A stretch of 64,000 bases of DNA, taken from the NCBI GenBank assembly GCA_965204465.1, contig OZ241995.1, positions 1,087,839-1,151,838 of the forward strand. Direction: 5' to 3'. The translations under genes were made by a program, and so were the position numbers. This document shows, piece by piece, positions 32,255 to 62,149 of this stretch. The notes under the pieces were generated by a model. The model was given only the letters and a program-made list of their open reading frames with translations, was not told where the DNA came from and searched no databases. The stretch is from Leptospiria bacterium. GTDB taxonomy: Bacteria; Spirochaetota; Leptospiria; Turneriellales; CBDBES01. Every line of letters begins with the position of its first letter. The first letter of the stretch is position 1.

Positions 32255-32278
32255 CTATTCTCTTACTAACCTCTCTCT

Positions 32279-32503
32279 GTGTCATTCACCAGAGAAGAAA
32301 TAGACGAATTCTACAATACATTCAAAGAAGCCTATCTGGCTCTAGCCAGCGGAGTAAAATCCTATACGATAAACACAGGAACCAGTAGCAGGTCCGTAAG
32401 CAGAGCAGATTTACCAGAAATAAAAAAGGAAATGATGTACTGGTCTAAAATGCGCAATCCGTCAGGTGACATAGAAACCATTCAGATAGAACCCAAACTA
32501 TAA
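32279..32503 (+). CDS. Lambda gpW-like head-tail joining protein homolog (copy 1)
   Basis: 74 aa, GTG start 24 nt after R1. TREE...EAYLALASGVKSYTINTGTSSRSVSRADLPEIKKEM aligns with lambda gpW (TRQEE...[31 protein letters not shown]). The stop overlaps the next ATG (TAATG), as at phage W-B junctions. Confidence 0.7.
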   Translation: MSFTREEIDEFYNTFKEAYLALASGVKSYTINTGTSSRSVSRADLPEIKKEMMYWSKMRNPSGDIETIQIEPKL

Positions 32504-33072: not shown

Positions 33073-33400
33073 CAGACAAAGAGTCATAAAACAGGCAAAA
33101 CCATTGATTTTCTGGAAAAAAATCCTCACCAATTGGCACCAGATCAATTCTTTTTTGCATTAAGGTATAACTGGGTTAGAACGAAAACAGAATGCGACAC
33201 AGGGATTTTTTATTTTTTTATTAACCATCATATGTATTTATTGAAGGTGTAGGAAGTTTTTTTAAATTTTTTTGTTGACAGAATATCAAATAATAATCAT
33301 TGACTTGGATTAGACAAGCTAGCCCTAAAATTAATAAGGCTTTTGTCTTACTCTAATATCAAATAAACAAAAAGCAACAGAGTTCAGGAGGATAGTTTTT
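33073..33400 (+). promoter_or_regulatory. Conserved upstream block U1 (promoter/leader module shared by the cassettes)
   Basis: Near-identical to 35681-36026, 39340-39781 and 44401-44579. Contains TTGACA (33275-33280) and TTGACT (33300-33305) -35-like hexamers; the -10 is ambiguous. Has one 51-bp leader unit and AGGAGG (33386-33391) 9 nt before the ATG. Confidence 0.4.
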
Positions 33401-34510: not shown

Positions 34511-34604
34511 TCTGTATTTCTCTGGAAAAGCCTACCATTGTATTTTGATCAAAGACAAGCCTAAAAATAGTGGCTTGGCAAGAGAGGATGATCCTGATCA
34601 CCCC

Positions 34605-34862
34605 TTGTTCACCCAAAGGGCACTGCACTGGCGGTTATACTGCCAGCTTAGCATTTCTTTTCACCCAGAGGGCACTGCGCTGGCAGTTGCACTGCTAGCT
34701 TAGCATTTCTTTTCACCCAAGGGCACTGCGCTGGCAGTTGCACTGCTAGCTTAGCATTTCTTTTCACCCAAGGGCACTGCGCTGGCAGTTGCACTGCTAG
34801 CTTAGCATTTCTTTTCACCCAAGGGCACTGCGCTAGCAGTTGCACTGCTAGCTTAGCATTTC
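34605..34862 (+). repeat. Array R2: about 5 copies of the 51-bp unit
   Basis: Same unit and orientation as R1. The first unit is the variant ...GGCACTGCACTGGCGGTTATACTGCC... Confidence 0.95.
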
Positions 34863-34884
34863 TTTCTCTTACTAACCTCTCTCT

Positions 34885-35109
34885 GTGTCATTCACCAGAG
34901 AAGAAATAGACGAATTCTACAATACATTCAAAGAAGCCTATCTGGCCTTAGCCAGCGGAGTAAAATCCTATACCATAAACACAGGAACCAGTAGCAGATC
35001 CGTAAACAGAGCGGATCTTCCAGAAATAAAAAAGGAAATGATGTACTGGTCTAAAATGCGCAATCCGTCAGGTGACATAGAAGCCATTCAGATAGAACCC
35101 AAACTATAA
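34885..35109 (+). CDS. gpW-like protein homolog (copy 2)
   Basis: Differs from copy 1 at 2 of 74 residues (S40N, T65A). Confidence 0.7.
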   Translation: MSFTREEIDEFYNTFKEAYLALASGVKSYTINTGTSSRSVNRADLPEIKKEMMYWSKMRNPSGDIEAIQIEPKL

Positions 35110-35680
35110 TGATCATTGCACATAAAATAAAGACATACTGGAATAGATTAAGGAATATAGTAACAGGATATTATGACGCAGGGCGTCGTGACTACCCTCT
35201 GTAAAATCATGGCAACCAAAACTATTGACCGCAGATGAAGAATACATAAAAGACTATGATCTCATAAGAGCAAGAAGCAGGGACTTAGTGCGTAACAACC
35301 ATCTGAATGTAAATAAGATCAAGGGCCAGTTATTTAGTTTTTTGCGATCAGAGGACAAGAATATGGCTGGTTATATGTCCTTTCCTGTTCAATACACACA
35401 GGAATATTATAAGCAGCTTACAGCAGAGACATTGATCAAATCCAAAGACAGGCATGGTTTCTATCGCTATGAGTACAAAAAAGTAAGAGACAGGAATGAG
35501 GTTTTAGATTGTACAGTATATGCAAGAGCCGCATCGATCCACCTGGGAGTCGATTATTTTACAGACCTTCAGTGGGACTATCTTAAAAAGAAAATCTTAG
35601 AAAGTAAAACAGGATCCCTATATCATGAAAGACAAAGTTCTGCACGTGTTCAGGTCATCTCTGAAGGGATTGACGTATAA
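35109..35680 (+). pseudogene. Portal-N::terminase-C chimeric ORF, copy 2, frameshifted
   Basis: A 1-nt deletion relative to copy 1 (GACATACCC becomes GACTACCC) gives TAA at 35202-35204. The track ORF 35225..35680 is the downstream remainder. Confidence 0.7.
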
Positions 35681-36026
35681 CAGACAAAGAGTCATAAAAC
35701 AGGCAAAACCATTGATTTTCTGGAAAAAAATCCTCACCAATTGGCACCAGATCAATTCTTTTTTGCATTAAGGTAACTGGGTTAGAACGAAAACAGAATG
35801 CGACACAGGGATTTTTTATTTTTTTATTAACCATCATATGTATTTATTGAAGGTGTAGGAAATTTTTTTTAATTTTTTTTACTTTTTTTAAATTTTTTTG
35901 TTGACAGAATATCAAATAATAATCATTGACTTGGAAAAGACAGGCTAGCCCTAAAATTAATAAGGCTTTTGTCTTACTCTAATAGCAAATAAATAAAAAG
36001 CAACAGAGTTCAGGAGGATAGTTTTT
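35681..36026 (+). promoter_or_regulatory. Conserved upstream block U2
   Basis: Same block as U1. TTGACA at 35901-35906, an extra T-rich duplication, and AGGAGG-N9-ATG. Confidence 0.4.
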
Positions 36027-37097
36027 ATGAACAACAGTAAAGAATTTATGCCCCAAAAGTGGTTGATCGTATTTTTGGTGCCTCTTGCTCTTTTATGGCT
36101 TGGTTGCACTGATGAAGCCAATACCCCCAATGAGACGAATAAAACTCAAAGGGAAGCGGGCATTAAATCCCCTGCAAATGGCAGTTCTTTTTCAAAAGGA
36201 GAAGATATTTCATTTCAATTAAGTAAAACGGATTTGGATATGCAAGGCATAGATCTTTATCTGGATAGGCGAAAAATTGATATTCATCAAGGGGATATGC
36301 TACCTGAACTTTCAGTAGGTGAGCATAAACTAAGGTTGGACATAAGCAACAAAACGGTGGATGAGGTGATTTTTACTGTAAAGAAATTGCCTGATGAATC
36401 AATGGAATATATGTTCAGGTTCAAATTCAGTTCTTTAAAGGGGGATGGTTACCTATATCCAAGTGCCTGTTTACCTAAGAAAGGTATTCAAACGAGGCTC
36501 ACAAAACAAGATGATTCCGAATGGAAAGATTTTTTACCCAATATATTCACCATGAGCAAGGAATGGAATGCCCTGACTGCTTCCTGGCAAGAGGGAAGGG
36601 GAGAATATGGCCCCCCTCCCTGTCTCTTGAATAGGGATAAGGTGCATGCAAATGAAGTTTTTATTGACTTCTATATAAAGGCAAACAGAAGCAAGCATCT
36701 TTCTAAACCAATAAGGATCAATTTTGAATCTAACAGGAGTTCACTTGGTCGTAGAGCCGGGCTTTTGATCCGCTCTATTTCAGAAATGCGAGAAATTCTG
36801 GGTATTAGGGACAGTATACCCAGAAGCTATCGCATAGATTTCTCAAAAAAGAGTATTCTGACTCTAAGTTATTTTCGTGTCGTACCCGAGTCAGGAGGTT
36901 GTCATCTAACTTCTATTTATGACAACCTTACTGCCATTTACGAATGGAATAATAAATTGTACGTTATGACGAAGGCCGTAACAAATGAAATCGTATATCC
37001 TGAAGGCCCTTGTTTTGCAATTTTGACAGGCTTCAGTAGAAGCCTAATTCTTGATTACGCCAAAGACCTTCCTGTAGAGTTTATAGAGATTCCGTAG
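36027..37097 (+). CDS. Island lipoprotein paralog P2 (patchwork of P4-like and P1-like segments)
   Basis: The signal peptide plus TDEANTPNETNKTQREAGIKSPANG... matches P4. VKKLPDESMEY and LLIRSISEMREILGIRDSIPRSYRIDF match P1. Confidence 0.85.
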   Translation: MNNSKEFMPQKWLIVFLVPLALLWLGCTDEANTPNETNKTQREAGIKSPANGSSFSKGEDISFQLSKTDLDMQGIDLYLDRRKIDIHQGDMLPELSVGEHKLRLDISNKTVDEVIFTVKKLPDESMEYMFRFKFSSLKGDGYLYPSACLPKKGIQTRLTKQDDSEWKDFLPNIFTMSKEWNALTASWQEGRGEYGPPPCLLNRDKVHANEVFIDFYIKANRSKHLSKPIRINFESNRSSLGRRAGLLIRSISEMREILGIRDSIPRSYRIDFSKKSILTLSYFRVVPESGGCHLTSIYDNLTAIYEWNNKLYVMTKAVTNEIVYPEGPCFAILTGFSRSLILDYAKDLPVEFIEIP

Positions 37098-37148
37098 CCC
37101 GTATTTTGATCAAAGACAAGCCTAAAAATAGTGGCTTGGCAAGAGAGG

Positions 37149-38225
37149 ATGATTTTAATAAAGAAGATGATACGAAATATTCTGTTTACCTTTCTGTTAC
37201 TACCTTATTTTTTAGGGTTTAGTTGCACAGACAACTCCAATATTGCTGATAACAATTCAGACGAATATGATGTGGTTCCTCAAAGGGAAGCGGGCATTAA
37301 ATCCCCTGCAAATGGTAGTTCTTTTTCAAAAGGAGAAGATATTTCATTTCAATTAAGTAAAACGGATTTGGATATGCAAGGCATAGATCTTTATCTGGAT
37401 AGACGAAAAATTGATATTCATCAAGGGGATATGCTACCTGAACTTTCAGTAGGTGAGCATAAACTAAGGTTGGACATAAACAACAAAACGGTGGATGAGG
37501 TAACCTTTAATGTAACAGAAGCGGAATATACGTTCAGATTCAAATTCAGTTATTTAAATGCGGATGGTGGCCTATATCCAAGTGCCTGTTTACCTAAGAA
37601 AGGTATTCAAACGAGGCTCACAAAACAAGATGATTCCGAATGGAAAGATTTTTTGCCAAATATATTCACCATGAGTAAGGAATGGAATGCCTTAACTACT
37701 TCCTGGCAAGAGGGAAGGGAAGAATATGGCCCCCCTCCCTGTCTCTTGAATGAAGATAAGGCGCATGCAAATGAAGTTTTTATTGACTTCTATATAAAGG
37801 CAAATAAAAGTAAGCATCTTTCTAAGTCAATATGGATCAATTTTGAATATCGTAGAATATCGCGTTATAATAATTTTAAGGCCGGGCTTTTGATCCGTTC
37901 TCTTTCAGAAATGCAAGAACTTCTGGGTTATCGTAACAGGATACCCGAAAGATATCGTATAGATTTTTCAAAAAAGAGTATTTTGACTCTAAAGGGCCCT
38001 ACTATTGATGGATGCGAAATCAGTGGTTGTGGTTTCGCTTCTGCTTATGACATCCTTGCCGCCATTTACGAGTGGAATAATAAATTATACATTATGACAA
38101 AAGTCGCACCAAAAGAAATATTATATCCCGTGGGTCCTTGTACTGCATGCTTGCAAGGTTCCAATGCCATCCTAATTCTGGATTACGCCAAAGACCTTCC
38201 CTTAGAGTTCATAGAGATTCCGTAG
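37149..38225 (+). CDS. Island lipoprotein paralog P3 (own signal peptide, no upstream U block)
   Basis: MILIKKMIRNILFTFLLLPYFLGFSC signal/lipobox. The start is ambiguous (37131 GTG, 37149 or 37167 ATG). The 5' end is built on a truncated copy of the conserved 3' flank of P2. From QREAGIK onward it is almost identical to P4. Confidence 0.8.
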   Translation: MILIKKMIRNILFTFLLLPYFLGFSCTDNSNIADNNSDEYDVVPQREAGIKSPANGSSFSKGEDISFQLSKTDLDMQGIDLYLDRRKIDIHQGDMLPELSVGEHKLRLDINNKTVDEVTFNVTEAEYTFRFKFSYLNADGGLYPSACLPKKGIQTRLTKQDDSEWKDFLPNIFTMSKEWNALTTSWQEGREEYGPPPCLLNEDKAHANEVFIDFYIKANKSKHLSKSIWINFEYRRISRYNNFKAGLLIRSLSEMQELLGYRNRIPERYRIDFSKKSILTLKGPTIDGCEISGCGFASAYDILAAIYEWNNKLYIMTKVAPKEILYPVGPCTACLQGSNAILILDYAKDLPLEFIEIP

Positions 38226-38294
38226 CCCGTATTTTGATCAAAGACAAGCCTAAAAATAGTGGCTTGGCAAGAGAGGATGATCCTGATTCACCCC

Positions 38295-38524
38295 TTGTTC
38301 ACCCAAAGGACACTGCACTGGCAGTTGCACTGCTAGCTTAGCATTTCTTTTCACCCAAGGGCACTGCGCTAGCAGTTGCACTGCTAGCTTAGCATTTCTT
38401 TTCATTTCTTAATGCTGCTTCTTAGCTAATGTTAGCATTCTTATTTGTTCACCCAAGGGCACTGCACTAGCAGTTGCACTGCTAGTTTAGTATTTCTTAA
38501 TGAAATTTTTATTTACAGCATTCT
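38295..38524 (+). repeat. Array R3: about 3 degenerate copies of the 51-bp unit, interrupted by AT-rich insertions
   Basis: Two good units (38295-38400), then interrupted or decayed units ending in ...AGCATTCTATTCTCTTAC, as in R1. Confidence 0.85.
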
Positions 38525-38546
38525 ATTCTCTTACTAACCTCTCTCT

Positions 38547-38771
38547 GTGTCATTCACCAGAGAAGAAATAGACGAATTCTACAATACATTCAAAGAAGCC
38601 TATCTGGCTCTAGCCAGCGGAGTAAAATCCTATACGATAAACACCGGAACCAGTAGCAGGTCCGTAAGCAGAGCAGATTTACCAGAAATAAAAAAGGAAA
38701 TGATGTACTGGTCTAAAATGCGCAATCCGTCAGGTGACATAGAAACCATTCAGATAGAACCCAAACTATAA
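38547..38771 (+). CDS. gpW-like protein homolog (copy 3)
   Basis: Protein identical to copy 1. Confidence 0.7.
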   Translation: MSFTREEIDEFYNTFKEAYLALASGVKSYTINTGTSSRSVSRADLPEIKKEMMYWSKMRNPSGDIETIQIEPKL

Positions 38772-39339
38772 TGATCATTACGCATATAAAGACATACTGG
38801 AATAGATTAAGGAATATAGTAACAGGATATTATGACGCAGGACGTCGTGACTACCCTCTGTAAAGTCATGGCAACCCAAACTATTGACCGCAGATGAAGA
38901 ATACATCAAAGACTATGATCTCATAAGAGCAAGAAGTAGGGACTTAGTGCGTAACAACCATCTGAATGTAAATAAGATCAAGGGCCAGTTATTTAGTTTT
39001 TTGCGATCAGAGGACAAGAATATGGCTGGTTATATGTCCTTTCCTGTTCAATACACACAGGAATATTATAAGCAGCTTACGGTAGAGACATTGATCAAAT
39101 CCAAAGACAGGCATGGTTTTTATCGCTATGAGTACAAAAAAGTAAGAGACAGGAATGAGGTTTTAGATTGTACAGTATATGCAAGAGCCGCATCGATCCA
39201 CCTGGGAGTCGATCATTTTACAGACCTTCAGTGGGACTATCTTAAAAAGAAAATCTTAGAAAGTAAAACAGGATCCCTATATCATGAAAGACAAAGTTCT
39301 GCACGTGTTCAGGTCATCTCTGAAGGGATTGACGTATAA
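38771..39339 (+). pseudogene. Portal-N::terminase-C chimeric ORF, copy 3, frameshifted
   Basis: Same 1-nt deletion as copy 2, giving TAA at 38861-38863. The remainder is ORF 38884..39339. Confidence 0.7.
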
Positions 39340-39781
39340 CAGACAAAGAGTCATAAAACAGGCAAAACCATTGATTTTCTGGAAAAAAATCCTCACCAAT
39401 TGGCACCAGATCAATTCTTTTTTGCATTAAGGTAACTGGGTTAGAACGAAAACAGAATGCGACACAGGGGATTTTTTATTTTTTTATTAACCATCATATG
39501 TATTTATTGAAGATGTAGGAAATTTTTTTAAATTTTTTTGTTGACAGAATATCAAATAATAATCATTGACTTGGAAAAGACAGGCTAGCCCTAAAATTAA
39601 TAAGGCTTTTGTCTTACTCTAATAGCAAATAAATAAAAGGCTTATTAAAAATAGGGCTTTTGTCTTACTCTAATATCAAATAAATAAAAGACTTATTAAA
39701 AATAAGGCTTTTGTCTTACTCTAATAGCACATAAATAAAAGGCTGACTAAAAAGTAGAAGATATATTAGGAGGATATACTT
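39340..39781 (+). promoter_or_regulatory. Conserved upstream block U3 with a triplicated leader unit
   Basis: TTGACA at 39541-39546. Three 51-bp leader units (39602, 39653, 39704). AGGAGG lies before ATG 39782. Confidence 0.4.
39602..39754 (+). repeat. Leader repeat: 3 x 51 bp, AT-rich
   Basis: Unit (A/G)AGGCTTTTGTCTTACTCTAATA(G/T)CA(A/C)ATAAATAAAAG(G/A)CTTATTAAAAAT. There is one copy in U1 and U2, three here, and two at 44464-44565. Confidence 0.85.
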
Positions 39782-40258
39782 ATGAGATTAAGTTTAAATT
39801 ATGGAAGATTTTCATTTAAAAATTTATTTTTTGTCGCAGTATTAGGTTTGACTATCACCTTTTCTGCATGTATACAGAGTGGGGATACTTTGGGGAATTA
39901 CTCAGATAGCAAAGCTGACATTACATTGATTGATAAAAGTAGTCGGCTATTAAGCGAATCTTTTGTATCTTTGCCTCCTGATGATGTCAATGAAGATGAA
40001 GCAATTCTGATACAAGAGAATAAAGTCGAGCATGCAGAACCTGATTATAATCTGGTAAAAAATTCAAATGGTCTAAACGGAGTAGAAGGGTGGAGGGTAA
40101 CCAAGGAAAAGGGAAATGGTTTTTTTTATCAGGGAAAAAACTCTTCTAATCTGGAATCTGGCAAGTACTTTGGCACATCTTATGGATGGAGTGTCAAAAG
40201 ACAGATCATTGATTTGGAAGCGGAGTGCGTTATGTTGTCTTTAAGCATGCAGGCGTAA
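39782..40258 (+). pseudogene. Lipoprotein signal plus the N-terminal half of an FBA (F-box-associated, glycan-binding type) domain; disrupted 5' part of the protease gene
   Basis: Signal peptide with lipobox-like TFSAC. NLVKNSNGLNGVEGW...GKYFGTSYGWSVKRQIIDLEAE parallels FBXO2 NLLRNPCGEEDLEGW...KKYFASSFEWCRKAQVIDLQAEG. The frame ends 34 nt into the next ORF. Confidence 0.6.
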
Positions 40259-42150
40259 GCAGCAGAGAAGAACCGCAAGAAGATTATTACGGCACACGAA
40301 TGAGGAATGCTACATTAAACATAAGTTTTCCACAAGAATTTTCTATGAAAGAAAGCTCTGTTATTGCAGAAGCTCTGCAAAACAAATTAAATGAGATGTC
40401 AGATCAAGAGATGATACCCGTTTCGGTTCTATGCAGGGATCCGCTGGTTAATGAAAATGATCTTTCCGCCTTTTCCGCTGGTTTCGAGGTGGACCAGGGC
40501 AATATCAAAAATGTTCAACTGGCTTCAAGTGATGAAGAGACGGTATCTGATCTAGAGCTGGTTTCTACTTTAGAGGAACAAGTAGAGATCATGAACCAAA
40601 AAGTCCTTTCTCAGATAAATCAAATGAAAAAGAAAAAAATTGAGGCTTATAGAGAAGATATTGATGAACTCACAGAGATGACGAATATAGATATAATGGG
40701 TCGTTCCTCTGGTGTAGCAGAATCCATTGGATTCGTTAAAGTTGAATTGAGCAAGGCAGAGATAGAAACCATAGCTCAATATGAAAATATCGTACAGACA
40801 ATAGATGTGCAATCAGAAGCAGACAATGACTTGGATTCTGCCTATACAGAGACAAAAATGGACCAGGCCCATCATGTCGAACATGATTCTGCCAGACAAA
40901 CAGGTTCGGGAGTCAATGTCTATATGTCTGAGGCGGATAATAACTGCTTTGACCCAAACACATATAATTTTGGGACCTGGATTCCAGGATATATTCCAGA
41001 TGTTGCATCAACAGGAAGGTATTGGGAGGATCGCCCTACTAGTGATCATGCTACACAAGTTGCTCAATCTCTAGTAGTTACTGCTCCTCATATTACTTTA
41101 TATTGTTCTACTAAGAGTTATCTATTCTCTCGCAGTTTAAAAGATCGGATACATATCATCAACTATTCTTGGACGGATCCCGGGTATGAAGGGGGTGCTG
41201 CTAATACTACTAGCTGGTTACCGCAAGACTCCTTATCCGATAGGTATGTTTGGAGAGATCGGATAGCTATATTTAAGAGTGCTGGTAATAATTGTAATAT
41301 TCCTGAGGGACACTGTCAAGTTACTTCCCCTGGAAAGGCGCACAATGTTATCACGGTTGGTGCTTATGATGATAGAACAGATAGGATGGGTACTTTTTCC
41401 CGTACAGTTGATCCAGAAACAAATGCGATCAAACCTGAGATCGTAGCCCCTGGTGTTTCTCTCCGATTTCCTGCTTCCGTTAATGCAAGTGAAGTCACAT
41501 CTTGGAATAATCATCTTCTTAGCGGTACTAGCTATTCCACTCCTCTGGCGGCCGGTATGGCTGCCTCTGTTACATCAAGATATACTCTACTCAAAAAGCA
41601 ACCTCATTTGATCAAGGCCAGTATGCTTGCTATGTCCGCCAAAGACATTCAAAGCGGGACTAGTGCCGATGGTGTAGGTGCCATTCAATGGAATGAGGAT
41701 GGAAATTATCGTTACTGGTCGAACTATAATAATAATTTTCTGGTAACAGGCGGCTGGAAATTGATTCATGAATATAATGTTTATAGAAACAACAAAAAAG
41801 TCAGGGTCGTCATATCATGGCTCAATGATGTAAATAAATGTGACAGTAGCACAGCTAAATTATGTATGGATATAGATTTAAAAGTTCATGGTCCTAATAA
41901 TGAATATATAGATCATGACTACCGGAATAGCCATGATGATGAATATGCTCCAAATAACATAACGAACAATAACTGGAGAATGGTAGAGTTCACGACAAGA
42001 AAAACAGGTAAATATAAGGTCTATGTATGGCGCCGTAGTAACTGGCATACAAAGACGAAAAGATGCTTTCTGTGGATTTGTTGGGGGCATAAGAAGCATT
42101 ACAGTAAAGTCAACCTGGGTCTTAGAATTGCCTACATTGATTATGATTAA
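40225..42150 (+). CDS. Subtilisin-like (S8) serine protease with an FBA C-terminal remnant, an I9-like propeptide and a C-terminal beta-sandwich domain
   Basis: The N-terminus VRYVVFKHAG...DYYGTRMRNATLNI matches the FBA C-terminus (VRFVRFEHGG..WFGARVTNSSV). Candidate Asp segment GSGVNVYMSEAD, His in SDHATQVAQ, Asn in FKSAGNN, Ser in SGTSYSTPLAAGMAA. No signal peptide in this frame. Confidence 0.8.
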   Translation: MRYVVFKHAGVSSREEPQEDYYGTRMRNATLNISFPQEFSMKESSVIAEALQNKLNEMSDQEMIPVSVLCRDPLVNENDLSAFSAGFEVDQGNIKNVQLASSDEETVSDLELVSTLEEQVEIMNQKVLSQINQMKKKKIEAYREDIDELTEMTNIDIMGRSSGVAESIGFVKVELSKAEIETIAQYENIVQTIDVQSEADNDLDSAYTETKMDQAHHVEHDSARQTGSGVNVYMSEADNNCFDPNTYNFGTWIPGYIPDVASTGRYWEDRPTSDHATQVAQSLVVTAPHITLYCSTKSYLFSRSLKDRIHIINYSWTDPGYEGGAANTTSWLPQDSLSDRYVWRDRIAIFKSAGNNCNIPEGHCQVTSPGKAHNVITVGAYDDRTDRMGTFSRTVDPETNAIKPEIVAPGVSLRFPASVNASEVTSWNNHLLSGTSYSTPLAAGMAASVTSRYTLLKKQPHLIKASMLAMSAKDIQSGTSADGVGAIQWNEDGNYRYWSNYNNNFLVTGGWKLIHEYNVYRNNKKVRVVISWLNDVNKCDSSTAKLCMDIDLKVHGPNNEYIDHDYRNSHDDEYAPNNITNNNWRMVEFTTRKTGKYKVYVWRRSNWHTKTKRCFLWICWGHKKHYSKVNLGLRIAYIDYD

Positions 42151-42170
42151 AGAATCTGGTTTTTAAAACA

Positions 42171-42635
42171 ATGACCATTTTTACTAAAAATATTTTTTTA
42201 TTTTATTTTACCTTTAATAGTATTCTATGCTCGGAAATTGTAGATGATCAAACATCTAGATCAGATAAAGGTCTTCCTGTCTTCATTGAAGAGATCATTG
42301 CCCCTGAACAGGTTTCCTCTTCTGAAACAAGTTTTGATATTCGATTGAAAGGCAATACTTCTAAATCTGATATAAATTGCTCAAAAATTCAATACAATGC
42401 TACAGTGACGGAAACCAGTCTAAATTTATCCGTGGAAAGAGTTGCTCCGCCGCCCTTTCGGCTAGACGATGGTTCTATTTCTACTGCTTGCAATGATCAA
42501 GTAGTCCCTTTTGGTGAAAGGATTTATACGGTAAAGGCAAATCCTCATTTTGCTTTGGGTGACTTTTTGATCACTATTCAAAATCCAGATTATCAAGGTG
42601 ATGATCTTCAAAAAGTAGTGAAGATCGTCGAATAA
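42171..42635 (+). CDS. Small secreted/lipoprotein S1 downstream of the protease
   Basis: Hydrophobic N-terminus ending in SILC. Paralog of S2, sharing the blocks SSSETSFDIRLKGNTSKSDINC and VPFGER.YTVKANP.FALGDF.ITIQNPD..GDDLQKVVKIVE. Confidence 0.65.
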   Translation: MTIFTKNIFLFYFTFNSILCSEIVDDQTSRSDKGLPVFIEEIIAPEQVSSSETSFDIRLKGNTSKSDINCSKIQYNATVTETSLNLSVERVAPPPFRLDDGSISTACNDQVVPFGERIYTVKANPHFALGDFLITIQNPDYQGDDLQKVVKIVE

Positions 42636-42711
42636 TGATCTTTCAAAAGAAACAGAATTTAATTGAAAGAAATCCATTCAATTCATCTATGATGGATCAA
42701 ATATCCCCCCC

Positions 42712-42813
42712 TTGTTCACCCAAATGGCACTGCACTAGCAGTTGCACTGCCAGCTTAGCATTTCTTTTCACCCAAGGGCACTGCGCTGGCAGTTGCACTG
42801 CCAGCTTAGCATT
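42712..42813 (+). repeat. Array R4: 2 copies of the 51-bp unit, cut mid-unit
   Basis: Ends ...GCCAGCTTAGCATT and is joined directly to AATATAATGTTTATAG, which equals 41771 onward. Confidence 0.9.
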
Positions 42814-43220
42814 AATATAATGTTTATAGAAACAACAAAAAAATCAGGGTCGTCATATCATGGCTCAATGATGTAAATAAATGTGACAGTAGCACAGCTA
42901 AATTATGTATGGATTTAGATTTAAAAGTTCATGGTCCTAATAATGAATATATAGATCATGACTACCGGAATAGCCATGATGATGTATATGCTCCAAATAA
43001 CATAACGAACAATAACTGGAGAATGGTAGAGTTCACGACAAGAAAAACAGGTAAATATAAGATTTATGTATGGCGCCGTAGTAACCGGTATTTATCAGTG
43101 AGGCTATGCAGCCCATTTTTTTCTAGTCGGCCTTTTTTTGTGGGGTGTCGTTCTACAGAAATCAGGGTCTACAATAAAGTCAACCTGGGTCTTAGAATTG
43201 CCTACATTGATTATGATTAA
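42814..43220 (+). pseudogene. Duplicated 3' fragment of the S8 protease gene (no start; corresponds to 41771-42150)
   Basis: In-frame YNVYRNNKKIRVVISWLNDVNKCDSSTAKLCMDLDLKVHGPNN... is preceded by TAA. It is identical to the parent except for a replaced in-frame segment (43086-43175 versus about 42043-42105). Confidence 0.85.
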
Positions 43221-43632
43221 GTGGATCATTTTTTCTTCTTTAATTTTTGTTTCTTCTTCATGCTCTGAGTCTCCTGAGTCTGAGACTCAATATAGCATTA
43301 AGAATATCTATATTGAAGAAGTGGATGTTCCCAGAGAAGTTTCCTCTTCTGAAACAAGTTTTGATATTCGATTGAAAGGCAATACTTCTAAATCTGATAT
43401 AAATTGCGAAGAAATCCGATATGAGTCTATAATAAGCAAAACAAGTCTGAAATTAGCAGTAAAAGGATATAGTTATCCTAGACTATGTAGTGCATTGATA
43501 GTTCCCTTTGGCGAAAGGGTTTATACGGTAAAGGCAAATCCTTATTTTGCTCTGGGTGATTTTATGATCACCATTCAAAATCCAGATCGTGCAGGTGATG
43601 ATCTTCAAAAAGTAGTGAAGATCGTCGAATAA
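43213..43632 (+). CDS. Small lipoprotein S2 (paralog of S1)
   Basis: MIKWIIFSSLIFVSSSC signal/lipobox. The ATG overlaps the stop of the protease fragment. The track start at 43138 is an upstream read-in. Confidence 0.65.
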   Translation: MIKWIIFSSLIFVSSSCSESPESETQYSIKNIYIEEVDVPREVSSSETSFDIRLKGNTSKSDINCEEIRYESIISKTSLKLAVKGYSYPRLCSALIVPFGERVYTVKANPYFALGDFMITIQNPDRAGDDLQKVVKIVE

Positions 43633-43708
43633 TGATCTTTCAAAAGAAACAGAATTTAATTAAAATAAATCCATTCAATTCATCTATGATGGATCAAATA
43701 TCCCCCCC

Positions 43709-44035
43709 TTGTTCACCCAAATGGCACTGCACTAGCAGTTGCACTGCCAGCTTAGCATTTCTTTTCACCAAAAGGGCACTGCGCTGGCAGTTGCACTGCT
43801 AGCTTAGCATTTCTTTTCACCAAAAGGGCACTGCGCTGGCAGTTGCACTGCTAGCTTAGCATTTCTTTTCACCCAAGGGCACTGCGCTGGCAGTTGTACT
43901 GCCAGCTTAGCATTTCTTTTCACCCAAGGGCACTGCGCTAGCAGTTGCACTACTAGCTTAGCATTTCTTTTCACCCAAGGGCACTGCACTGGCGGTTATA
44001 CTGCCAGTTTAGCATTTCTTTTCACCCAGAGGGCA
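43709..44035 (+). repeat. Array R5: about 6.4 copies of the 51-bp unit
   Basis: Same unit and orientation. Point variants between units, e.g. CACCAAAAGGG, TTGTACTGCC, TTGCACTACT. Confidence 0.95.
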
Positions 44036-44400
44036 TAGAAAAATGGAACACCATTCTATTTTCTGTTTTTTCTTCTTCCTAATTTACTCTTGAGTAAGAC
44101 GAACGGTTGGGAACGCAGGCAAGGATGCCTGCGAAATGGAGCGTCTTTGCCATGGATGCAAAACATGGATGTTTTGCAAGGCTGCCTGACCTTACCCCAA
44201 GCACCTGACATCCTATCAGGTCGCTTGCCCCTACAAAACATCCGTGTTTTGTAGGTTACAGGATGTAACCCGTCCAGCCGCTTGTGCAGACGAAGTCTGT
44301 GAACTTCCATGTGAAAAAAGAAAGAAAAATAGCTATTCTTTTTACACAAAAAGACCTGTGCCCGTAGGGTGAAATGGGTAGCAAAGTAGCAGGTTTTTTT
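44036..44400 (+). other. GC-rich multi-hairpin element, copy A (possible structured RNA or MITE-like element)
   Basis: A series of perfect hairpins: CGCAGGCA-AGGA-TGCCTGCG, GCAAAACAT-GG-ATGTTTTGC, ACCTGA-CATCCTA-TCAGGT, CTACAAAACA-TCCG-TGTTTTGTAG and GGTTACA-GGA-TGTAACC. It sits where the gpW module sits in cassettes 1-3. Confidence 0.6.
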
Positions 44401-44579: not shown

Positions 44580-45644
44580 ATGAACAATAGTAAAAAATTT
44601 ACATTCCAAAAGTGGTTGATCATATTTTTGATGCCTCTTGCTCTTTTATGGCTTGGTTGCACTGATGAAGCCAATACCCCCAATGAGACCAATAAAACTC
44701 AAAGGGAAGCGGGCATTAAATCCCCTGCAAATGGCAGTTCTTTTTCAAAAGGAGAAGATATTTCATTTCAATTAAGTAAAACGGATTTGGATATGCAAGG
44801 CATAGATCTTTATCTGGATAGGCGAAAAATTGATATTCGTCAAGGGGATATGCTACCTGAACTTTCAGTAGGTGAGCATAAACTAAGGTTGGACATAAAC
44901 AACAAAACGGTGGATGAGGTAACCTTTAATGTAACAGAAGCGGAATATACGTTCAGATTCAAATTCAGTTATTTAAATGCGGATGGTGGCCTATATCCAA
45001 GTGCCTGTTTACCTAAGAAAGGTATTCAAACGAGGCTCACAAAACAAGATGATTCCGAATGGAAAGATTTTTTGCCAAATATATTCACCATGAGTAAGGA
45101 ATGGAATGCCTTAACTACTTCCTGGCAAGAGGGAAGGGAAGAATATGGCCCCCCTCCCTGTCTCTTGAATGAAGATAAGGCGCATGCAAATGAAGTTTTT
45201 ATTGACTTCTATATAAAGGCAAATAAAAGTAAGCATCTTTCTAAACCAATATGGATCAATTTTGAATTTCATAGAGAACTGCTTAGTAATAATTTTAAGG
45301 CCGGGCTTTTGATCCGTTCTCTCTCGGAAATGCAAGAACTTCTGGGTTATCGTAACAGGATACCCGAAAGATATCGTATAGATTTTTCAAAAAAGAGTAT
45401 TCTGACTCTAAAGGGCCCTACTATTGATGGATGCGAAATCAGTGGTTGTGGTTTCGCTTCTGCTTATGACATCCTTGCCGCCATTTACGAGTGGAATAAT
45501 AAATTATACATTATGACAAAAGTCGCACCAAAAGAAATATTATATCCCGTGGGTCCTTGTGCTGCATGCTTGCAAGGTTCCAATGCCATCCTAATTCTCG
45601 ATTACGCCAAAGACCTTCCTGTAGAGTTTATAGAGATTCCGTAG
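44580..45644 (+). CDS. Island lipoprotein paralog P4
   Basis: The N-terminal ~115 aa match P2 and the rest matches P3. Lipobox-like LLWLGC. C-terminus DYAKDLPVEFIEIP. Confidence 0.85.
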   Translation: MNNSKKFTFQKWLIIFLMPLALLWLGCTDEANTPNETNKTQREAGIKSPANGSSFSKGEDISFQLSKTDLDMQGIDLYLDRRKIDIRQGDMLPELSVGEHKLRLDINNKTVDEVTFNVTEAEYTFRFKFSYLNADGGLYPSACLPKKGIQTRLTKQDDSEWKDFLPNIFTMSKEWNALTTSWQEGREEYGPPPCLLNEDKAHANEVFIDFYIKANKSKHLSKPIWINFEFHRELLSNNFKAGLLIRSLSEMQELLGYRNRIPERYRIDFSKKSILTLKGPTIDGCEISGCGFASAYDILAAIYEWNNKLYIMTKVAPKEILYPVGPCAACLQGSNAILILDYAKDLPVEFIEIP

Positions 45645-45783: not shown

Positions 45784-46264
45784 TAGAAAAATGGAACACC
45801 ATTCTATTTTCTGTTTTTTCTTCTTCCTAATTTACTCTTGAGTAAGACGAACGGTTGGGAACGCAGGCAAGGATGCCTGCGAAATGGAGCGTCTTTGCCA
45901 TGGATGCAAAACATGGATGTTTTGCAAGGCTGGGGATTGGGTTACAGGATGTAACCACCCAGCCTAACTTCTATGGCAAAGTAGCGGGTTTTTTTCACCC
46001 TACGGCACAGGTCTTTGTTTCTTTCTTTTTTTTACATGTAAAACATGGATGTTTTACATGGCTGCCTGACCTTACCCCAAGCACCTGACATCCTATCAGG
46101 TCGCTTGCCCCTACAAAACATCCGTGTTTTGTAGGTTACAGGATGTAACCCGTCCAGCCGCTTGTGCAGACGAAGTCTGTGAACTTCCATGTGAAAAAAG
46201 AAAGAAAAATAGCTATTCTTTTTACACAAAAAGACCTGTGCCCGTAGGGTGAAATGGGTAGCAA
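45784..46264 (+). other. GC-rich multi-hairpin element, copy B, with a ~130-bp internal partial inverted duplication
   Basis: Equals copy A plus an insert at 45933-46062. That insert contains CACCCTACGGCACAGGTCTTT...ACATG, the inverted repeat of CATGT...AAAGACCTGTGCCCGTAGGGTG at 46188-46250. Confidence 0.6.
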
Positions 46265-46524: not shown

Positions 46525-46868
46525 CGGAGACGGCGGGATTTGAACCCGCGTCCTGTCATGCAATCGAAAGCTTTCTACATGTTTAGTTTGTATTTTATTT
46601 TAGAGAAGACCATCTCTACAAACAAAGTAAGGACTTCCTTAGCAAGAATGTCTCGGTTTTATACCCTTGCCATATAAAACCCACTCTCTATAAAAGTTAG
46701 CCATTATATCCGCCTAGAGAGAAACAGATATAACAGCGCTTGGCAAATTATGCAGCCAAAGCGTAATTTAAGTTGTCGTCGTTTATTATAGACTTCCCTT
46801 TTTAGAAGAGGGCGCTTCACATGCTTTTCTAACCATTGGATCATGACAGTCGAAGCCAATTCGTCCCC
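46525..46868 (-). ncRNA. ssrA: tmRNA (SsrA)
   Basis: The minus strand begins GGGGACGAATTGGCTTCGAC and ends GCGGGTTCAAATCCCGCCGTCTCC (tRNA-like T-arm and acceptor). The tag frame reads ...N-D-D-N-L-N-Y-A-L-A-A-stop (stop at 46748-46750). No CCA is encoded. Confidence 0.9.
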
Positions 46869-57773: not shown

Positions 57774-58793
57774 TCAAGCATTTTTTTTATTATGGAAATC
57801 TTTTTCTTGATTGAAGGAATTTACAACCCCTATCACTCTTTTACAACTGCCCAGTGGTTTCACTGTATAGTCTAAAAAAACCTGATTGAAGATTTTATAA
57901 TCCCGACTGCTTTCGTTGCCTTCAATAAATAAAATTTTATTCCGAGAGCCTAAAATCTCCAGATACAACCTTTCTGGTATATCTTCTTTGGGTTTCAATA
58001 TTTCATAATCCCATCTACCATCTCCTGAATAAGACTTTACCCATATCTTTTCATTTTTTTGTCGAGTAAATGCGAAATCAATATCATGAGTTAAATACAC
58101 GAACATACAATCTTCTCGATGGCTTTCTAGTTGATCATACAAATTCTTTACCATTGCACGATGTAAATGAGTTTCAGGTTCATCAATAATTATTATTCGG
58201 TTTGGTTTGAGACAGACTACCTGCCCGATAATATAAAAAATGTATCGTTCACCATCGCTCATTTCAGATCCAGAATAGCCTTCAGATAGTGATACTTTTA
58301 ATCCTTCTAAAACTAACTTTCTGTGAGTTATTATAGATCCCCAAATACGTTGAACGACATCTAATTTTGTCTCAGGTACCTTATTATTATCAGTTTGATT
58401 ATTCATTTTTGTTTTCCTATATTTTATAGAAACGCTTGCTTCTTTGGCAAAAAGTAATTTTAATAAATCTTCATAATCATCCATAGAGTGTTTATGTGGA
58501 AGATGTTGATCCCGTGGCGAACGATTGCCGTAGCTAGCTTGCGAAATATTCCCTGAAAAAAAATCTTTTTCTGCTTCTTCTGGGGATTTCAAACTAAGAG
58601 CTTCAGGAATAACTAATAATCTTTGCGCAGGGATAAAAAAAGAATTGTTCTTATTCAGCGCCTTTAGTTGACTAGCGAATCTGGTTTTACCTGAACCATT
58701 TGCGCCAATAATGACAATTCTGTTACATTCTATATAATTTACTTCTGAATTAGTATCCTGTAATTTTGGGGGAAGATTTACACGCATAATCAT
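57774..58793 (-). CDS. Compact ABC-type ATPase fused to a DUF4435/Toprim-like domain (OLD-family-like)
   Basis: IIGANGSGKTRFA Walker A, SGSEMSDGERY signature-like motif, IIIIDEPETHLH Walker B, and C-terminal ILFIEGNESSRDYKIF (DUF4435-like). The ATG overlaps the stop of the RM gene (TAATG). Confidence 0.7.
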   Translation of the reverse strand: MIMRVNLPPKLQDTNSEVNYIECNRIVIIGANGSGKTRFASQLKALNKNNSFFIPAQRLLVIPEALSLKSPEEAEKDFFSGNISQASYGNRSPRDQHLPHKHSMDDYEDLLKLLFAKEASVSIKYRKTKMNNQTDNNKVPETKLDVVQRIWGSIITHRKLVLEGLKVSLSEGYSGSEMSDGERYIFYIIGQVVCLKPNRIIIIDEPETHLHRAMVKNLYDQLESHREDCMFVYLTHDIDFAFTRQKNEKIWVKSYSGDGRWDYEILKPKEDIPERLYLEILGSRNKILFIEGNESSRDYKIFNQVFLDYTVKPLGSCKRVIGVVNSFNQEKDFHNKKNA

Positions 58794-61700
58794 TATAGTT
58801 TTATTTCCTCACCCCCCCCCACAACCTTAATCTCCTCAGGTGTCAATTCGTAAAGCTCATATACAAGGCCGTCGATCTGCTTGTCGAGGATGTCGGTTTG
58901 TTGTTGATATTGCTTCTTTTGGATGGGCGAGGTGGTCTCATGTAGTTTCTTTTGGGTGGTAAGCATTTGTTCCACGAGAGAGACCATTTTGTCGTGTTGG
59001 GATTTTTGGGCGGGGTTGGAGAGATCGAGTACTTTTATTGGTAACTCTTTGACCTGACCAATCCTTATTTTAGGGAAAATATCAGTATTCGCTTTAAACT
59101 CGCTTTTATAGAAATATTGTAGTACAGTGGAATTTATTATTCCAAGTAAATATCTCAAATTAATTTCAGATGAGCGTATACAATAAAGGCTTCTATTTGT
59201 TAGTAAACCAGTTTTATTGAAAGTTGCTGTTATTCTATCTCCAGTTTCTCGTATTACTATTTTAAAATTTTCAAAAATATTCATCTCTTTTTTAAAAGTT
59301 TGATAAGTATTTTTGTCAATGAAGCTAATCGAATTTATAGCGTACCTTTTAATATCTTCCCCAAAGATAATAGGTATTCCTTCACTCACTTTTTTATTTT
59401 TACCTATTTCTAAACCACGAGTTACAGAAACTAAATCCTTGAGCTTTTTATATCGTCTGACTTTAAAACTAATAGGACCATAGCTGTAAATATATCCTTG
59501 GTTTTTGAAGTGAACTTGTTTTATCTTTGTTTCTTTAAATTGATTATTTCCCTGCTTGACATAGTATTTGATAGAAGGATAGTAATTCTTATTTTTGCTA
59601 ACTACAATTATAAAAGTTGGCATTTGAACCTCTTTAAAAACACCGTCCCCATAATCACGTATGATCTTAATACTAGCTTGTTCAAATAAAAATTTTCTAG
59701 AATCTTGATAATTCATTCCCTTTAGAAAAAGACTTGGTATAATAAAACTCAAATAGCCATTCAAATTAAGGACATTAAACCCTTTTTCTATGAATAGTTG
59801 AAAAATATCAAAGAAACCAGTAGCACATTTAAATTGTTTTTTAGCATATTTGATTAAAAAATTGTCAAGATTCTCATTTTTCACATAAGGCGGATTCCCG
59901 ATCACCACATCAAACCCTCCCGGTATTTTCTCGGGCAGATATGCCTGGTCATAACCGACAACCGCATGCTTTAGCTTGCGGTTGTCGATGGAGTCTTCGT
60001 CATGCTTATGATGATTGTTCCAGACATACTCAATAGCGTTCTTTACATATTTCTCTGTTGAAAGTTCCGTCTTGTTGGAACCCCTCGCCCAAAGACTGAC
60101 CTGCCGGCCTCTACCCACAGCCGAAAGCTGAAGCATACGGTTGTGGGTAGAGGAGGAATACCCCTTCAGGTTTCGGATGATATCAGAGATACTCTCCTGG
60201 GCTGTGACAACGACACAATGAACATGATCTGAAAGGACATTGCAGGCCAAAACCCTGTACCTCTCCCGGATAATCTTCTCTGACAAAGCATCCGCGATGA
60301 TCTGCCTGCTTTCTAAAGATAGTACCACCGGGTCTTTTACTTGAGTTCCGTATTTCACCATCTCTTCGCTGATCCTGCTTCCATAGGTGGGCCATGTAAT
60401 AAGGTAGGTCTTCCAGTCTTGCTGCACCTCTACCCCCTTCATGATTGCAGGAAAGCCTTCGGGGCCTTCCCAATCAAAGGCATTTACTTTGTGCATATCT
60501 TCCGCGCCAAATAGTGACAAATTTTTATCCTTATAGAAATCACTCCCTATCAACGAATTACCGCATTTGATATTGGTAGAGAGATCGGGCAAGAGCTGGG
60601 CTTGATCAAAACGCAAAAAACCCGCTGCGGTCTGTTCACTCTCTCCCTCCATGAGCTTTAAAAGTAGAGACAGCTTGGTCACCTCCACAGCCTGACGGTC
60701 GATGTCTACCCCGTAGATATGACGGGTCAGAATCTTCTTGTTTCATTTTAATGGAAAGACGGTAGGCATTCTCTCCTGTTTGATAGATATTACCGTCTTT
60801 TATATTTTTATTCAGAACCTGCTTTTTGGCGTAGACTGCCCAAGATACCATTTCAAAAGATAGTCGTAAGCTCTTACTAAAAAAGAACCAGAACCGCAGG
60901 CAGGGTCGAGAATGGCCAGGATATTTGAAAATGGAACGTCGTTCACCTGTGCCGGCAGGGATTTGGCTGCCTGTGACTTTTTTACCCTACCCCCTGTTTT
61001 TTGTTCAAAATCAGCAGGTTTTCTACCTTTGAGTTTTTCACCTAGTGTATTCTCTACGATGTAGTCTACTATATATTGGGGGGTATAGTATACGCCGCCT
61101 GCCTTGCGTACTTCTGGTTTTTCTTCTACCTTTGCCTGATGTGATGCGGTGAGGCGGATGGTTTTGCCTAAAAACTTTTCGTAGATAGAGCCCAAAATTT
61201 CAATGGGCAATACCGAAAACTCGTAAGGGCACTTGGGATAATAAAGTCCTCTTATAATAGAGTGGAGGGTTTTGTCTTCAATGTTCAGTTTAGAGATATA
61301 TTCCTCTGGTTTAAAAAGACTGGAATTATATTTTTCGTCTGCTTTTTTAAAAAACTCATCGAGTTGGGGGTATACCTTATTTTTGGCTTCCAGAAACTTC
61401 TTTAAGCTACCGTATTCTTCTATGTTCTGGTCTTCGGCAAAACGCAAAAAAATGATGCGGTCAATGATTTTCTGAACGGCATAATTGATGTCGTAGGTTT
61501 CCAGGTTTTTATTGTTTTTGGCGATTGTTTTGGCTAAGTCTACCCGCCATTCGTCTATGGTCTTTAAAAATTCTTTGTCAACTTCTGAGGTTCCTTTTTG
61601 GCGTTTTTTGTCAGAGATGTATTTGTCGAAGCTGCCTGTTAAAATGGCTTCTTGTGAAAAAGTGCCTTTGAGATATTCCCATTCTTTTTCATAATCAGTA

Positions 61701-62149
61701 AATTGGCAGTAGAATATCCGCCCCACAGAGGCATCGTCTCTGTGATGTGGCTTGATGCGGGTGTCGTATACGGCGAATTCTTCAAAGTCGGTTAAAATAG
61801 ACAAGGGAAGCTTGGCGGTGTAAGCATAGCGTCTGATCTGAAAGGCGGGTGAGGCAGCGTGTTTGATGTCAATTGACGGTTTTTTTGCCTCTACAAAAAA
61901 TTTACGGGTGCCTCCGATGCGAAAAGAGTAATCAGGGGCCTTGGGTTTTCCTTGTATGATGACTTTGTCTTCCCTAACCACTTCGCGGTAGTCTTCGGAA
62001 TAGCCTTTTTTATTGCTGACATCCCAGCCAAGCTGGGTAAAAAATTTGTCGATAAAATCAACCCTGACATTTGCTTCATCATACGAAGCTCTTTTATATT
62101 GTTTAAGGTTGCGTTTAAATGTTTCTATCAAGCCAGATAGATTCTGCAT
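58793..62149 (-). pseudogene. Type IIG (MmeI/Eco57I-like) restriction-modification gene: PD-ExK nuclease, gamma-class N6-adenine methyltransferase and TRD; two frameshifts and a domain insertion
   Basis: PDYSF...FFVEAKKP nuclease motif, GGVYYTPQYIV, ILDPACGSGSFL (motif I), IYGVDIDRQAVEVTKL, CGNSLIG and GGFDVVIGNPPY (motif IV). Three frames are needed across 60690-60850 (ORFs 60812..62149, 60636..60851 and 58793..60688). Confidence 0.8.
59924..60436 (-). mobile_element. IS200/IS605-type Y1 (HUH) transposase-like domain inserted in frame inside the methyltransferase
   Basis: About 170 aa between FDWEGPEGFPAIMKG and GGFDVVIGNPPY: WKTYLITWPTYG...LACNVLSDHVHCVVV (HUH), ISDIIRNLKGYSS, SLWARGSNKTEL and AIEYVWNNHHKH (Tyr motif). 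No stop codons at either junction. Confidence 0.65.

Follow-up and report, generated by a model that had tools for sequence, protein, structure and literature searches.

The subject of this analysis is a restriction-modification gene in a 64,000-nucleotide (nt) stretch of DNA, hereafter the window, from a Leptospiria bacterium (GenBank assembly GCA_965204465.1, contig OZ241995.1, positions 1,087,839 to 1,151,838 of the forward strand), together with a transposase-like domain of the Y1 (HUH) type that lies within it. On the minus strand of the window, two open reading frames (ORFs) of 445 and 631 amino acids (aa), in the same frame and with the shorter one upstream, together make up a single Eco57I/MmeI-like type IIG gene of roughly 1118 aa, as judged by Pfam and PADLOC. 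Table 1 presents the coordinates of the features discussed. The 445-aa ORF matches the Pfam families HSDR_N, N6_Mtase and MmeI_hel and the PADLOC model REase_MTase_IIG (PDLC03604, 397 bits), and is 87% identical to the database protein P0021 and 80% identical to the enzyme of an orthologous locus, L013 (contig OZ242290.1). In the 631-aa ORF, the Pfam families Eco57I (94 bits) and TaqI_C (72.5 bits) lie on either side of a Y1_Tnp domain. The type IIG domain set, consisting of the nuclease, a gamma-class N6-adenine methyltransferase with motifs I and IV, and TaqI_C, is complete in the window but spread over two ORFs; the same set is found in single intact ORFs in the L013 orthologue (1198 aa) and in protein P0003 (HOB26900.1, 1087 aa). 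DNA alignment with the related locus L094 (87% identical) places two extra nucleotides near 60835-60842 and one near 60734, and the host gene, as assembled, is broken by these two frameshifts.

The insert is exactly 171 codons long, as measured between ...IMK(G/A/S) and GGFD..NPPY against close relatives that lack it. Its GC content is 0.483, compared with 0.352 across the window. A preliminary description of this DNA, made from the sequence alone, had proposed that the segment is a Y1 transposase domain, and this identification holds: Pfam Y1_Tnp (PF01797) matches at 34.8 bits (gathering cutoff 23, E=2e-8), and the His-Val-His motif, LKGYSS, LWARGS and Tyr221 are all present. Its placement just before motif IV also stands, as do the two in-frame junctions without stops, while the limits given there (59924-60436) are one codon off, which falls within the G/GG ambiguity of the junction. 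Among NCBIfam families the best match is the REP-associated tyrosine transposase (RAYT; REP_Tyr_transpos, NF047646) at 52.2 bits, below the curated cutoff of 80, where REP denotes repetitive extragenic palindromic sequences; transpos_IS200 follows at 29.4 bits, below its cutoff of 55.

Structure prediction agrees with an autonomous domain in a length-variable surface loop. When the insert is modelled alone by AlphaFold (mean predicted local distance difference test score, pLDDT, 67), the top 30 Foldseek matches are solely TnpA proteins of the IS200/IS605 insertion sequence (IS) family (ISDra2, IS608, IS200) and TnpA_REP. The full-length model of the intact homologue P0003 (pLDDT 88, predicted template modelling score 0.80) shows the Y1 domain as an autonomous beta-alpha-beta-beta-alpha-beta-alpha unit, preceded by the EFPxxF helix and followed by the beta-strand of motif IV. 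Outside the Y1 domain, this model matches CamA, BrxX/PglX, BpuSI, MmeI and M.TaqI. Two other ways of accommodating the insert were considered and rejected. An intein can be dismissed, since the insert begins with VEVQQD and ends with LPEKIP before a host Gly, with no splice-junction residues and no Hint domain (Y1_Tnp is the only Pfam match). Separate expression of the Y1 domain was also discarded, since neither L013 nor a further orthologous locus, L010, conserves the AAGGGGG..GTG found upstream in the window.

Table 1. Features of the type IIG gene, its Y1 insert and neighbouring elements (positions are those of the window)
Feature	Position	Strand	Basis or content
N-terminal fragment of the type IIG enzyme (445-aa ORF)	60812..62149	-	PD-(D/E)xK nuclease (HSDR_N), helical spacer, N-terminal half of the methyltransferase including motif I (DPACGSGSFL)
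Frameshifted stretch splitting the gene	60725..60845	-	about 36 codons homologous to relatives in the other frame; stops in the flanking frame (three-frame translation)
C-terminal two thirds of the type IIG enzyme (631-aa ORF with Y1 insert)	58793..60688	-	identical to database protein P0001 (619 aa)
Left host flank FDWEGPEGFPAIMKG	60434..60478	-	end of the excursion before motif IV; alignment with empty-site proteins P0021, P0020 and P0062
Insert (VEVQQD...LPEKIP), Y1/HUH domain and linker	59921..60433	-	513 nt, 171 codons; aa 86-256 of the 631-aa ORF
Putative core unit, codons D91-W...A-Y250	59939..60418	-	by analogy with the stretch common to free and embedded copies
HUH motif, His-Val-His in SDHVHCVVV	60218..60226	-	sequence motif
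Hairpin S1, inside the Y1 coding sequence, codes STHNRMLQLSAVGRG	60107..60153	-	22-nt arms, 86% complementary; -16.2 kcal/mol, z=-5.8
Putative catalytic Tyr codon, Y221 in EYVWNNHHKH	60026..60028	-	sequence motif
Hairpin S2, just 3' of the Y1 domain, codes IDNRKLKHAVVG	59954..59989	-	15-nt arms, 93% complementary; -15.1 kcal/mol, z=-6.2
Right host flank, motif IV GGFDVVIGNPPY	59885..59920	-	alignment with relatives
C-terminal half	58793..59884	-	methyltransferase C-part, TaqI_C target-recognition domain, C-terminal helices; low GC
Fused PARIS gene AriAB	57774-58793	-	PADLOC PDLC02982, 302 bits; start codon overlaps the type IIG stop
Arrays of 51-bp units, hairpin GCTAGCAGT-TGC-ACTGCTAGC	31946-32254, 34608-34865, 38298-38404, 42715-42813, 43712-44035		five arrays
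ORFs matching terminase gpA	32503-33072, 35225-35680, 38884-39339		C-terminal nuclease part only; three copies
Separate AT-rich array	39599-39753		51-bp period, 3 copies
Repeats of a second hairpin family, TGCAAAACATGGATGTTTTGCA / CCTACAAAACATCCGTGTTTTGTAGG	44157-44255, 45905-46135		on both sides of the ORF below
ORF between these repeats	44580-45644
Transfer-messenger RNA (tmRNA) gene	46525-46868	-

The architecture is not confined to the window. A search with the 631-aa ORF returned five further proteins that carry the domain at the same place with 33-49% identity, one of them the intact 1087-aa single ORF. A profile of the Y1 domain searched against 1.84 billion representative sequences gave 971 matches, and 52 of the best 150 exceed 400 aa. 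At least 50 protein clusters (defined at 50% identity) from many phyla have the Y1 domain at this position, and chance read-through, one of the options raised at the outset, is ruled out by this recurrence together with the conserved catalytic residues. In species-representative genomes the embedded form occurs, among others, in Leptonemataceae, Aminicenantes, Bacteroidetes, Hyphomicrobiales, Methylomirabilis, Solirubrobacteraceae, Cytophagia, Spirochaetia and Ignavibacteria/Kapaibacterium. Both His residues of the HUH motif are kept in 54/54 embedded and 73-75 of 75 free-standing representatives, and a Tyr occupies the catalytic position in 51/54 and 75/75, respectively. When 28 proteins, including shorter fragments, were scanned with Pfam, 25 proved to be of the Eco57I type, with Y1_Tnp interrupting the Eco57I domain right before NPPY; the remaining three comprise one type ISP enzyme, one type I HsdS and one protein with Y1 only. 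Public names for the embedded proteins read 'N-6 DNA methylase' or similar only. A search of viral contigs and plasmids found no relatives of the module.

Some of these proteins merit a closer look. P0198 (768 aa) joins a Y1 domain of this family to a type I specificity subunit with two Methylase_S domains, and P0152 (431 aa) joins one to the C-terminal specificity domain of a type ISP enzyme. The Y1 association reaches past Eco57I-type enzymes yet remains among restriction-modification proteins. In one metagenome-assembled genome (JAUWMV01; loci L016, L032 and L057), at least two type IIG genes harbour Y1 modules that belong to different clades, each accompanied by a hairpin family of its own.

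The hairpins themselves form the second part of the finding. The preliminary description had seen no obvious IS hairpin ends at the insert, which is incorrect: two strong hairpins, S1 and S2, are present, the former within the Y1 coding sequence and the latter just 3' of the domain. Their energies were obtained by folding single-stranded DNA, and none of 200 shuffled sequences folds as well. The peptide encoded by S1 is a low-confidence surface loop in the models, with pLDDT below 50 in the model of the insert. At the homologous position the gene for P0003 carries a perfect 26-nt palindrome, though the protein is only about 44% identical. Across 18 distinct loci of the window's clade, 89.4% of cells at the S1 site are paired, compared with 25-52% when the partners are slid; six of 12 pairs show compensatory changes, and the covariation score lies above all 500 shuffles. 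In one such case, Arg codons AGA/CGA change along with Ser codons TCT/TCG, synonymously on both sides. Watson-Crick pairs number 175, where synonymous-codon randomisation yields 95 on average and 115 at most; in the other clade, the corresponding codons pair no more than expected by chance. Taken together, these patterns show that the hairpins of the module are kept by selection at the nucleotide level. Within the S1 pairs, G.T outnumbers A.C by 18 to 4, pointing to the sense strand as the folding strand.

S2 was recovered independently by a covariance model derived from S1 (29.6 bits, E=1.4e-5), and the two constitute one hairpin family; exact and degenerate searches find S2 nowhere else in the window. 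An earlier formulation, according to which the S1 and S2 of one gene nearly match each other while those of different genes diverge, was weakened by their membership in one family. A second Y1 clade has a different palindrome, AACAAGGGGTTGCAACCCCTTGTT and its variants, read as NKGLQPLV and located before, after or inside the domain. Protein clade tracks hairpin family in free and embedded copies alike, and hairpins with stems of at least 10 bp occur at 1.49/kb within about 200 nt of Y1 versus 0.27/kb elsewhere in the same loci, a 5.6-fold difference. The second palindrome, AACAAGGGGTTGCAACCCCTTGTT, is nearly unchanged in L030, L032, L034, L036, L051, L072, L077, L084 and other loci from many phyla. 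It often lies in frame within type IIG ORFs, whether in the N-half, the linker or the C-half, as a REP-like element translated in host proteins. At L002 (about 490-800, protein P0053), tandem hairpin copies give rise to a run of QPLVP repeats after the Y1 domain, which extends the distance to NPPY to 103 aa.

Outside the coding module, the same hairpins can be abundant. In addition to S1 and S2, the L013 locus has at least 20 more copies, with tandem arrays immediately upstream (203-499 and 2594-3222) and downstream (7963-8769) of the gene, while L010 and the Aminicenantes locus L015 have copies right after the stop codon. Cognate palindromes near the gene are a feature of L013, L010, L015 and the free-standing relatives, whereas the window has S1 and S2 alone within its 64 kb. 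The pattern resembles that of a classic RAYT with its REP sequences, with the place of the RAYT gene taken by a whole restriction enzyme that has Y1 inside.

Free-standing relatives show the module to be a discrete unit. Some are genes of 150 aa whose housekeeping neighbourhood is conserved (LeuRS, Y1, glycosyltransferase, RecR, HisRS) and carry the name RayT at the Joint Genome Institute; near several other free copies, no methyltransferase motif was found within 700 nt in any frame. The free copy at L014 and the copy embedded in the type IIG gene of L015 share 86% nt identity over 494 nt, with sharp ends and unrelated flanks, which suggests that the unit moves between contexts. Their homology runs from codons (D/N)-W-(K/Q)-A-Y to a point 17 nt past the S2 foot. 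Ahead of S2 the two copies differ by a 1-nt indel, which determines whether the frame terminates (free, L014) or reads on into GGFD..NPPY (embedded, L015). Other free-embedded pairs of both clades have the same boundaries. On the Y1 profile, the L014/L015 homology starts 4 nt before position 8, and the core unit of Table 1 is the stretch of the window that would correspond to this homology. As for a target-site signature, TTAC precedes the free L014 copy, and nothing is conserved at the other left junctions. In a neighbour-joining tree of 146 columns, free and embedded copies are intermixed; taken alone the tree is weak, since some 'free' proteins may be fragments, and genomic loci were checked as backing. 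The domesticated fusion and the intein-like insertion suggested earlier each fit in part: the insert is no intein, but it behaves as a discrete module that exists both free and embedded.

Equally informative are close relatives without the insert. Over the 330 aa that precede FDW, identity to the window enzyme amounts to 87% for P0021, 80% for P0020 and 78% for P0062; over the whole N-terminal part the values are 87%, 82% and 75%. All three are empty sites with an ordinary short loop, ...EIMK(A/S) followed directly by GGFDCVIGNPPY; at the DNA level, an empty-site allele would read ATGAAR NNN followed by GGNGGNTTYGAT. Where the module is present, it measures exactly 513 nt both in the window and in L013, an intact orthologue from Leptonemataceae, and 528 nt in L010, bordered in all three by ATG AAR NNN on one side and GGN GGN TTT GAT on the other. 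The loop before motif IV has 17-29 residues in 87 of 113 homologues and ranges from 17 to 106 aa without Y1, with some homologues holding unrelated inserts of up to 106 aa in the same place. The loop is permissive.

Identities among the window, L013 and L010 are 79-88% for the N-halves, 66% for the Y1 modules and 39-40% for the C-halves, and the window C-half is merely 35-40% identical to the C-halves of relatives whose N-halves reach 75-88%. For 51 embedded genes, the identities of the Y1 domain and of its flanks are incongruent in both directions (r = 0.57 and 0.47). The type IIG gene is a three-part mosaic. In pairs of embedded genes, homology extends far upstream and ends 107-125 nt past the domain, just after NPPY; for L010 and L013 against the window, it ends 109-112 nt after profile position 150. 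In L016 and L017, DNA identity is 95.5% across the N-half, the Y1 module and NPPY, and the two genes are unrelated beyond, the mark of a very recent swap of specificity halves with its breakpoint just 3' of motif IV. In the window, the GC content falls from 0.45-0.48 upstream to 0.30 in the C-half, and this step (about 59870-59885) coincides with the L016/L017-type breakpoint. Composition and identity together point to a different history for the C-half of the window gene than for its N-half.

Next to the type IIG gene lies a fused PARIS gene, AriAB, which covers profile positions 35-377 of 570 and, of the DUF4435/Toprim part, the beginning only. Downstream, where AT-rich sequence is full of stops, no remainder is readable. 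AriAB is genuinely truncated, which makes real decay of the defence island plausible. In the closest relatives of the window gene, at L010 (4301-5860) and L094 (1799-2810), a DDE-type IS separates the N-terminal from the C-terminal part, and type IIG genes of this family are often inactivated. The window copy of the module is probably a decaying member of its family, with Y1 motifs and hairpins intact in a frameshifted host gene.

Elsewhere in the window, five arrays of 51-bp units are interleaved with three ORF copies that match only the C-terminal nuclease part of terminase gpA, which looks like a repeated cassette structure. A possible link between the Y1 domain and these arrays (31946-44035), floated early on as speculation, was rejected: their hairpin is of a different family with a weaker fold (-9.9 kcal/mol, z = -1.9), the hairpin model of the module does not match them, and no Y1 gene adjoins them. 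What remains of that idea is the general association of Y1 with hairpin repeats, as supported in L013, L010 and L015. A separate AT-rich array shares the 51-bp period. Repeats of a second hairpin family flank the ORF 44580-45644 just upstream of the tmRNA gene, which suggests the edge of an integrated element.

The explanation favoured here, with a probability of roughly 0.6, is that the insert is a self-contained module of the RAYT/IS200 type, consisting of a Y1 domain that would nick and join single-stranded DNA plus two in-frame cognate hairpins, lodged in a permissive loop of the methyltransferase. The architecture is widespread, its catalytic residues and hairpins are under selection, the module occurs both free and embedded with reproducible ends, and in related genomes hairpins of this family have multiplied around the gene. 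In mechanistic terms, the Y1 domain would be made as part of the restriction-modification polypeptide and, by analogy with TnpA_REP and IS608 TnpA, could bind the sense-strand hairpins once the DNA becomes single-stranded. It may then cut and rejoin beside the hairpins through a 5'-phosphotyrosine intermediate, as those enzymes do, and such nicking could spread REP-like hairpins around the gene and move or maintain the module. The insert is tolerated at this loop, and the host enzyme can therefore keep its function.

Several observations weigh against this explanation. The insert scores below the curated NCBIfam cutoffs of both RAYT (80 bits) and IS200 (55 bits). In the window's clade no hairpin was found at the 5' boundary of the module, and with S1 located 284 nt inside, the canonical left-end and right-end geometry of IS200/IS605 elements is missing. 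The S1-derived covariance model, run with filters off over the 64-kb window, recovers S1 and S2 only, with no surrounding amplification. G.T wobble pairs fit an RNA hairpin equally well, and homologous recombination between conserved flanking motifs can yield presence or absence among close relatives without any Y1 activity. Finally, given the frameshifted host gene, there is no sign that the window copy is active.

Of the competing accounts, the one with most in its favour is a domesticated defence accessory, in which Y1 would act on invading single-stranded or hairpin DNA (phages with single-stranded DNA, conjugative strands or rolling-circle intermediates) and the hairpins would be incidental or regulatory. 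It draws on the exclusive fusion of Y1 to restriction-modification proteins (Eco57I-type, type ISP and HsdS), a defence-island context with PARIS AriAB adjoining, conserved catalytic residues and the existence of intact full-length ORFs. It is nevertheless unlikely, as it leaves unexplained the nucleotide-level selection on cognate hairpins inside and right after the domain, their amplification around the gene and the free gene with 86% nt identity, and viral contigs and plasmids gave no relatives pointing to a specific target. A built-in recombinase is more doubtful still. Here Y1 would nick at S2, upstream of motif IV, and thereby promote exchange of the C-terminal half, that is, the C-part of the methyltransferase and the target-recognition domain. 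The end of embedded-gene homology 107-125 nt past the domain, the near-identity of L016 and L017 up to that point, the drop in GC from 0.48 to 0.30 at the window's breakpoint, and hairpins of the same family that bracket the C-half in L010 and L015 (S2 before it, copies after the stop codon) would all suit this role. Yet L094, L095 and P0020, which lack Y1, show the same mosaic of N-half and C-half, so swapping of the C-half does not need Y1. Moreover, motif IV, being conserved, offers ordinary homologous recombination an obvious place to cross over, and neither silent cassettes nor additional hairpin copies were found in the window.

It is less probable again that the insert is an inert passenger, a dead relic in a permissive loop whose palindromes act on messenger RNA (through stability or translation pausing) or not at all. 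The variable loop of insert-free homologues (17 to 106 aa), the pseudogene-like state of the window gene, the L010 orthologue split by a DDE IS, and G.T pairs that suit RNA as well as DNA are compatible with such a relic. Against it stand the HUH motif and Tyr conserved in essentially all embedded representatives over deep divergence, a hairpin family that follows the protein clade, and L013 hairpins amplified outside the transcript-coding region. A recent in-frame IS200 insertion, which the preliminary description had listed as a possible outcome, or an assembly chimera can practically be set aside. Apart from a superficial likeness to an element of IS200 size and the raised GC content of the insert, little recommends it: the module lacks both a start and a stop codon of its own, it occurs at the same position and in the same frame in dozens of independent assemblies from many phyla, and the orthologous modules of L013 and L010 (513-528 nt) have only 66% protein identity.

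The RAYT-type module favoured above can be compared with several known systems. Like RAYT, represented by the E. coli TnpA_REP structure (PDB 4ER8), the insert has the Y1 HUH fold with a HUH motif and a single catalytic Tyr, and RAYT is both its top NCBIfam match and a Foldseek match. RAYTs also occur as single genes in conserved housekeeping synteny (PMC5581495), as do the free-standing relatives described here. Cognate palindromic repeats adjoining and amplified around the gene, a RAYT trait, are seen in L013, L010 and L015. The module differs in falling below the RAYT cutoff (52 vs 80 bits), in being embedded in another enzyme, and in having its hairpins inside the coding sequence and translated. 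The hairpin consensus is also other, with a stem around GCTNNAGC or AAGGGG..CCCCTT, and there is no genome-wide REP signal within the 64 kb of the window. With the TnpA proteins of IS200/IS605 elements (IS608, ISDra2 and IS200), the insert shares the fold, as the top structural matches attest, and a unit of about 0.5 kb. Right-end cleavage in these elements falls a short distance 3' of a hairpin; the module likewise has a 3' subterminal hairpin with its boundary 17 nt past the foot, and the sense or top strand is the one that folds. Unlike them, it scores 29 bits against a cutoff of 55, lacks a 5'-boundary hairpin in the window's clade, in its embedded form is without a promoter, start or stop of its own, and gives no evidence of multiple identical copies.

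The host, for its part, resembles Eco57I/MmeI-type enzymes in its nuclease, helical spacer, gamma-class N6-adenine methyltransferase and TaqI_C, and in the modular swapping of specificity halves; it differs in the 171-aa Y1 domain between the FDW..EFPxxF excursion and motif IV, where 17-29 aa are usual, and in the frameshifts of the window copy. Inteins, IStrons and the palindromic elements of Rickettsia offer a further parallel, as they too sit in frame at a conserved site without destroying the host gene. Rickettsia palindromic elements are palindromic repeats translated within host proteins, and the in-frame hairpin peptides NRxLKxSV and NKGLQPLV are their match here. Unlike an intein, the module shows no sign of protein splicing (it starts with Val, ends with Pro before Gly and lacks Hint), and at 513 nt it is too short for the splicing ribozyme of an IStron. 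The insert is presumably retained in the mature protein.

A bolder and more tentative proposal, to which somewhat less than even odds are assigned, is a new lifestyle for a DNA transposon. The element would be a 'Y1 plus hairpin' unit of about 0.5 kb that exists either as a free gene or as an unspliced in-frame insert in a single permissive loop of restriction-modification enzymes, where it would be expressed by the host gene, carry its recognition hairpins as translated sequence and, through nicking beside motif IV, perhaps aid the rapid swapping of specificity halves. As a biological entity, the embedded Y1 architecture appears to be undescribed. A full-text literature search, whose coverage is incomplete, turned up no account of restriction-modification enzymes that contain a Y1 or RAYT domain, although domain databases may list the architecture. 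The RAYT classification paper mentions no fusion of Y1 with restriction-modification proteins.

What Y1 enzymes of the RAYT type contribute to their hosts has been debated since they were first described, and domestication without a known function has been discussed (PMC5581495). A RAYT-like domain built into the restriction-modification enzymes of many phyla, with its cognate hairpins within the reading frame, offers a compact, expressible system composed of one polypeptide and two defined hairpins. It also joins two fields, hairpin-directed transposition of single-stranded DNA and the evolution of restriction-modification. If the module is mobile, it would represent an intein-like strategy carried out at the DNA level without splicing; if it serves the host, it would constitute a new accessory activity for type IIG enzymes.

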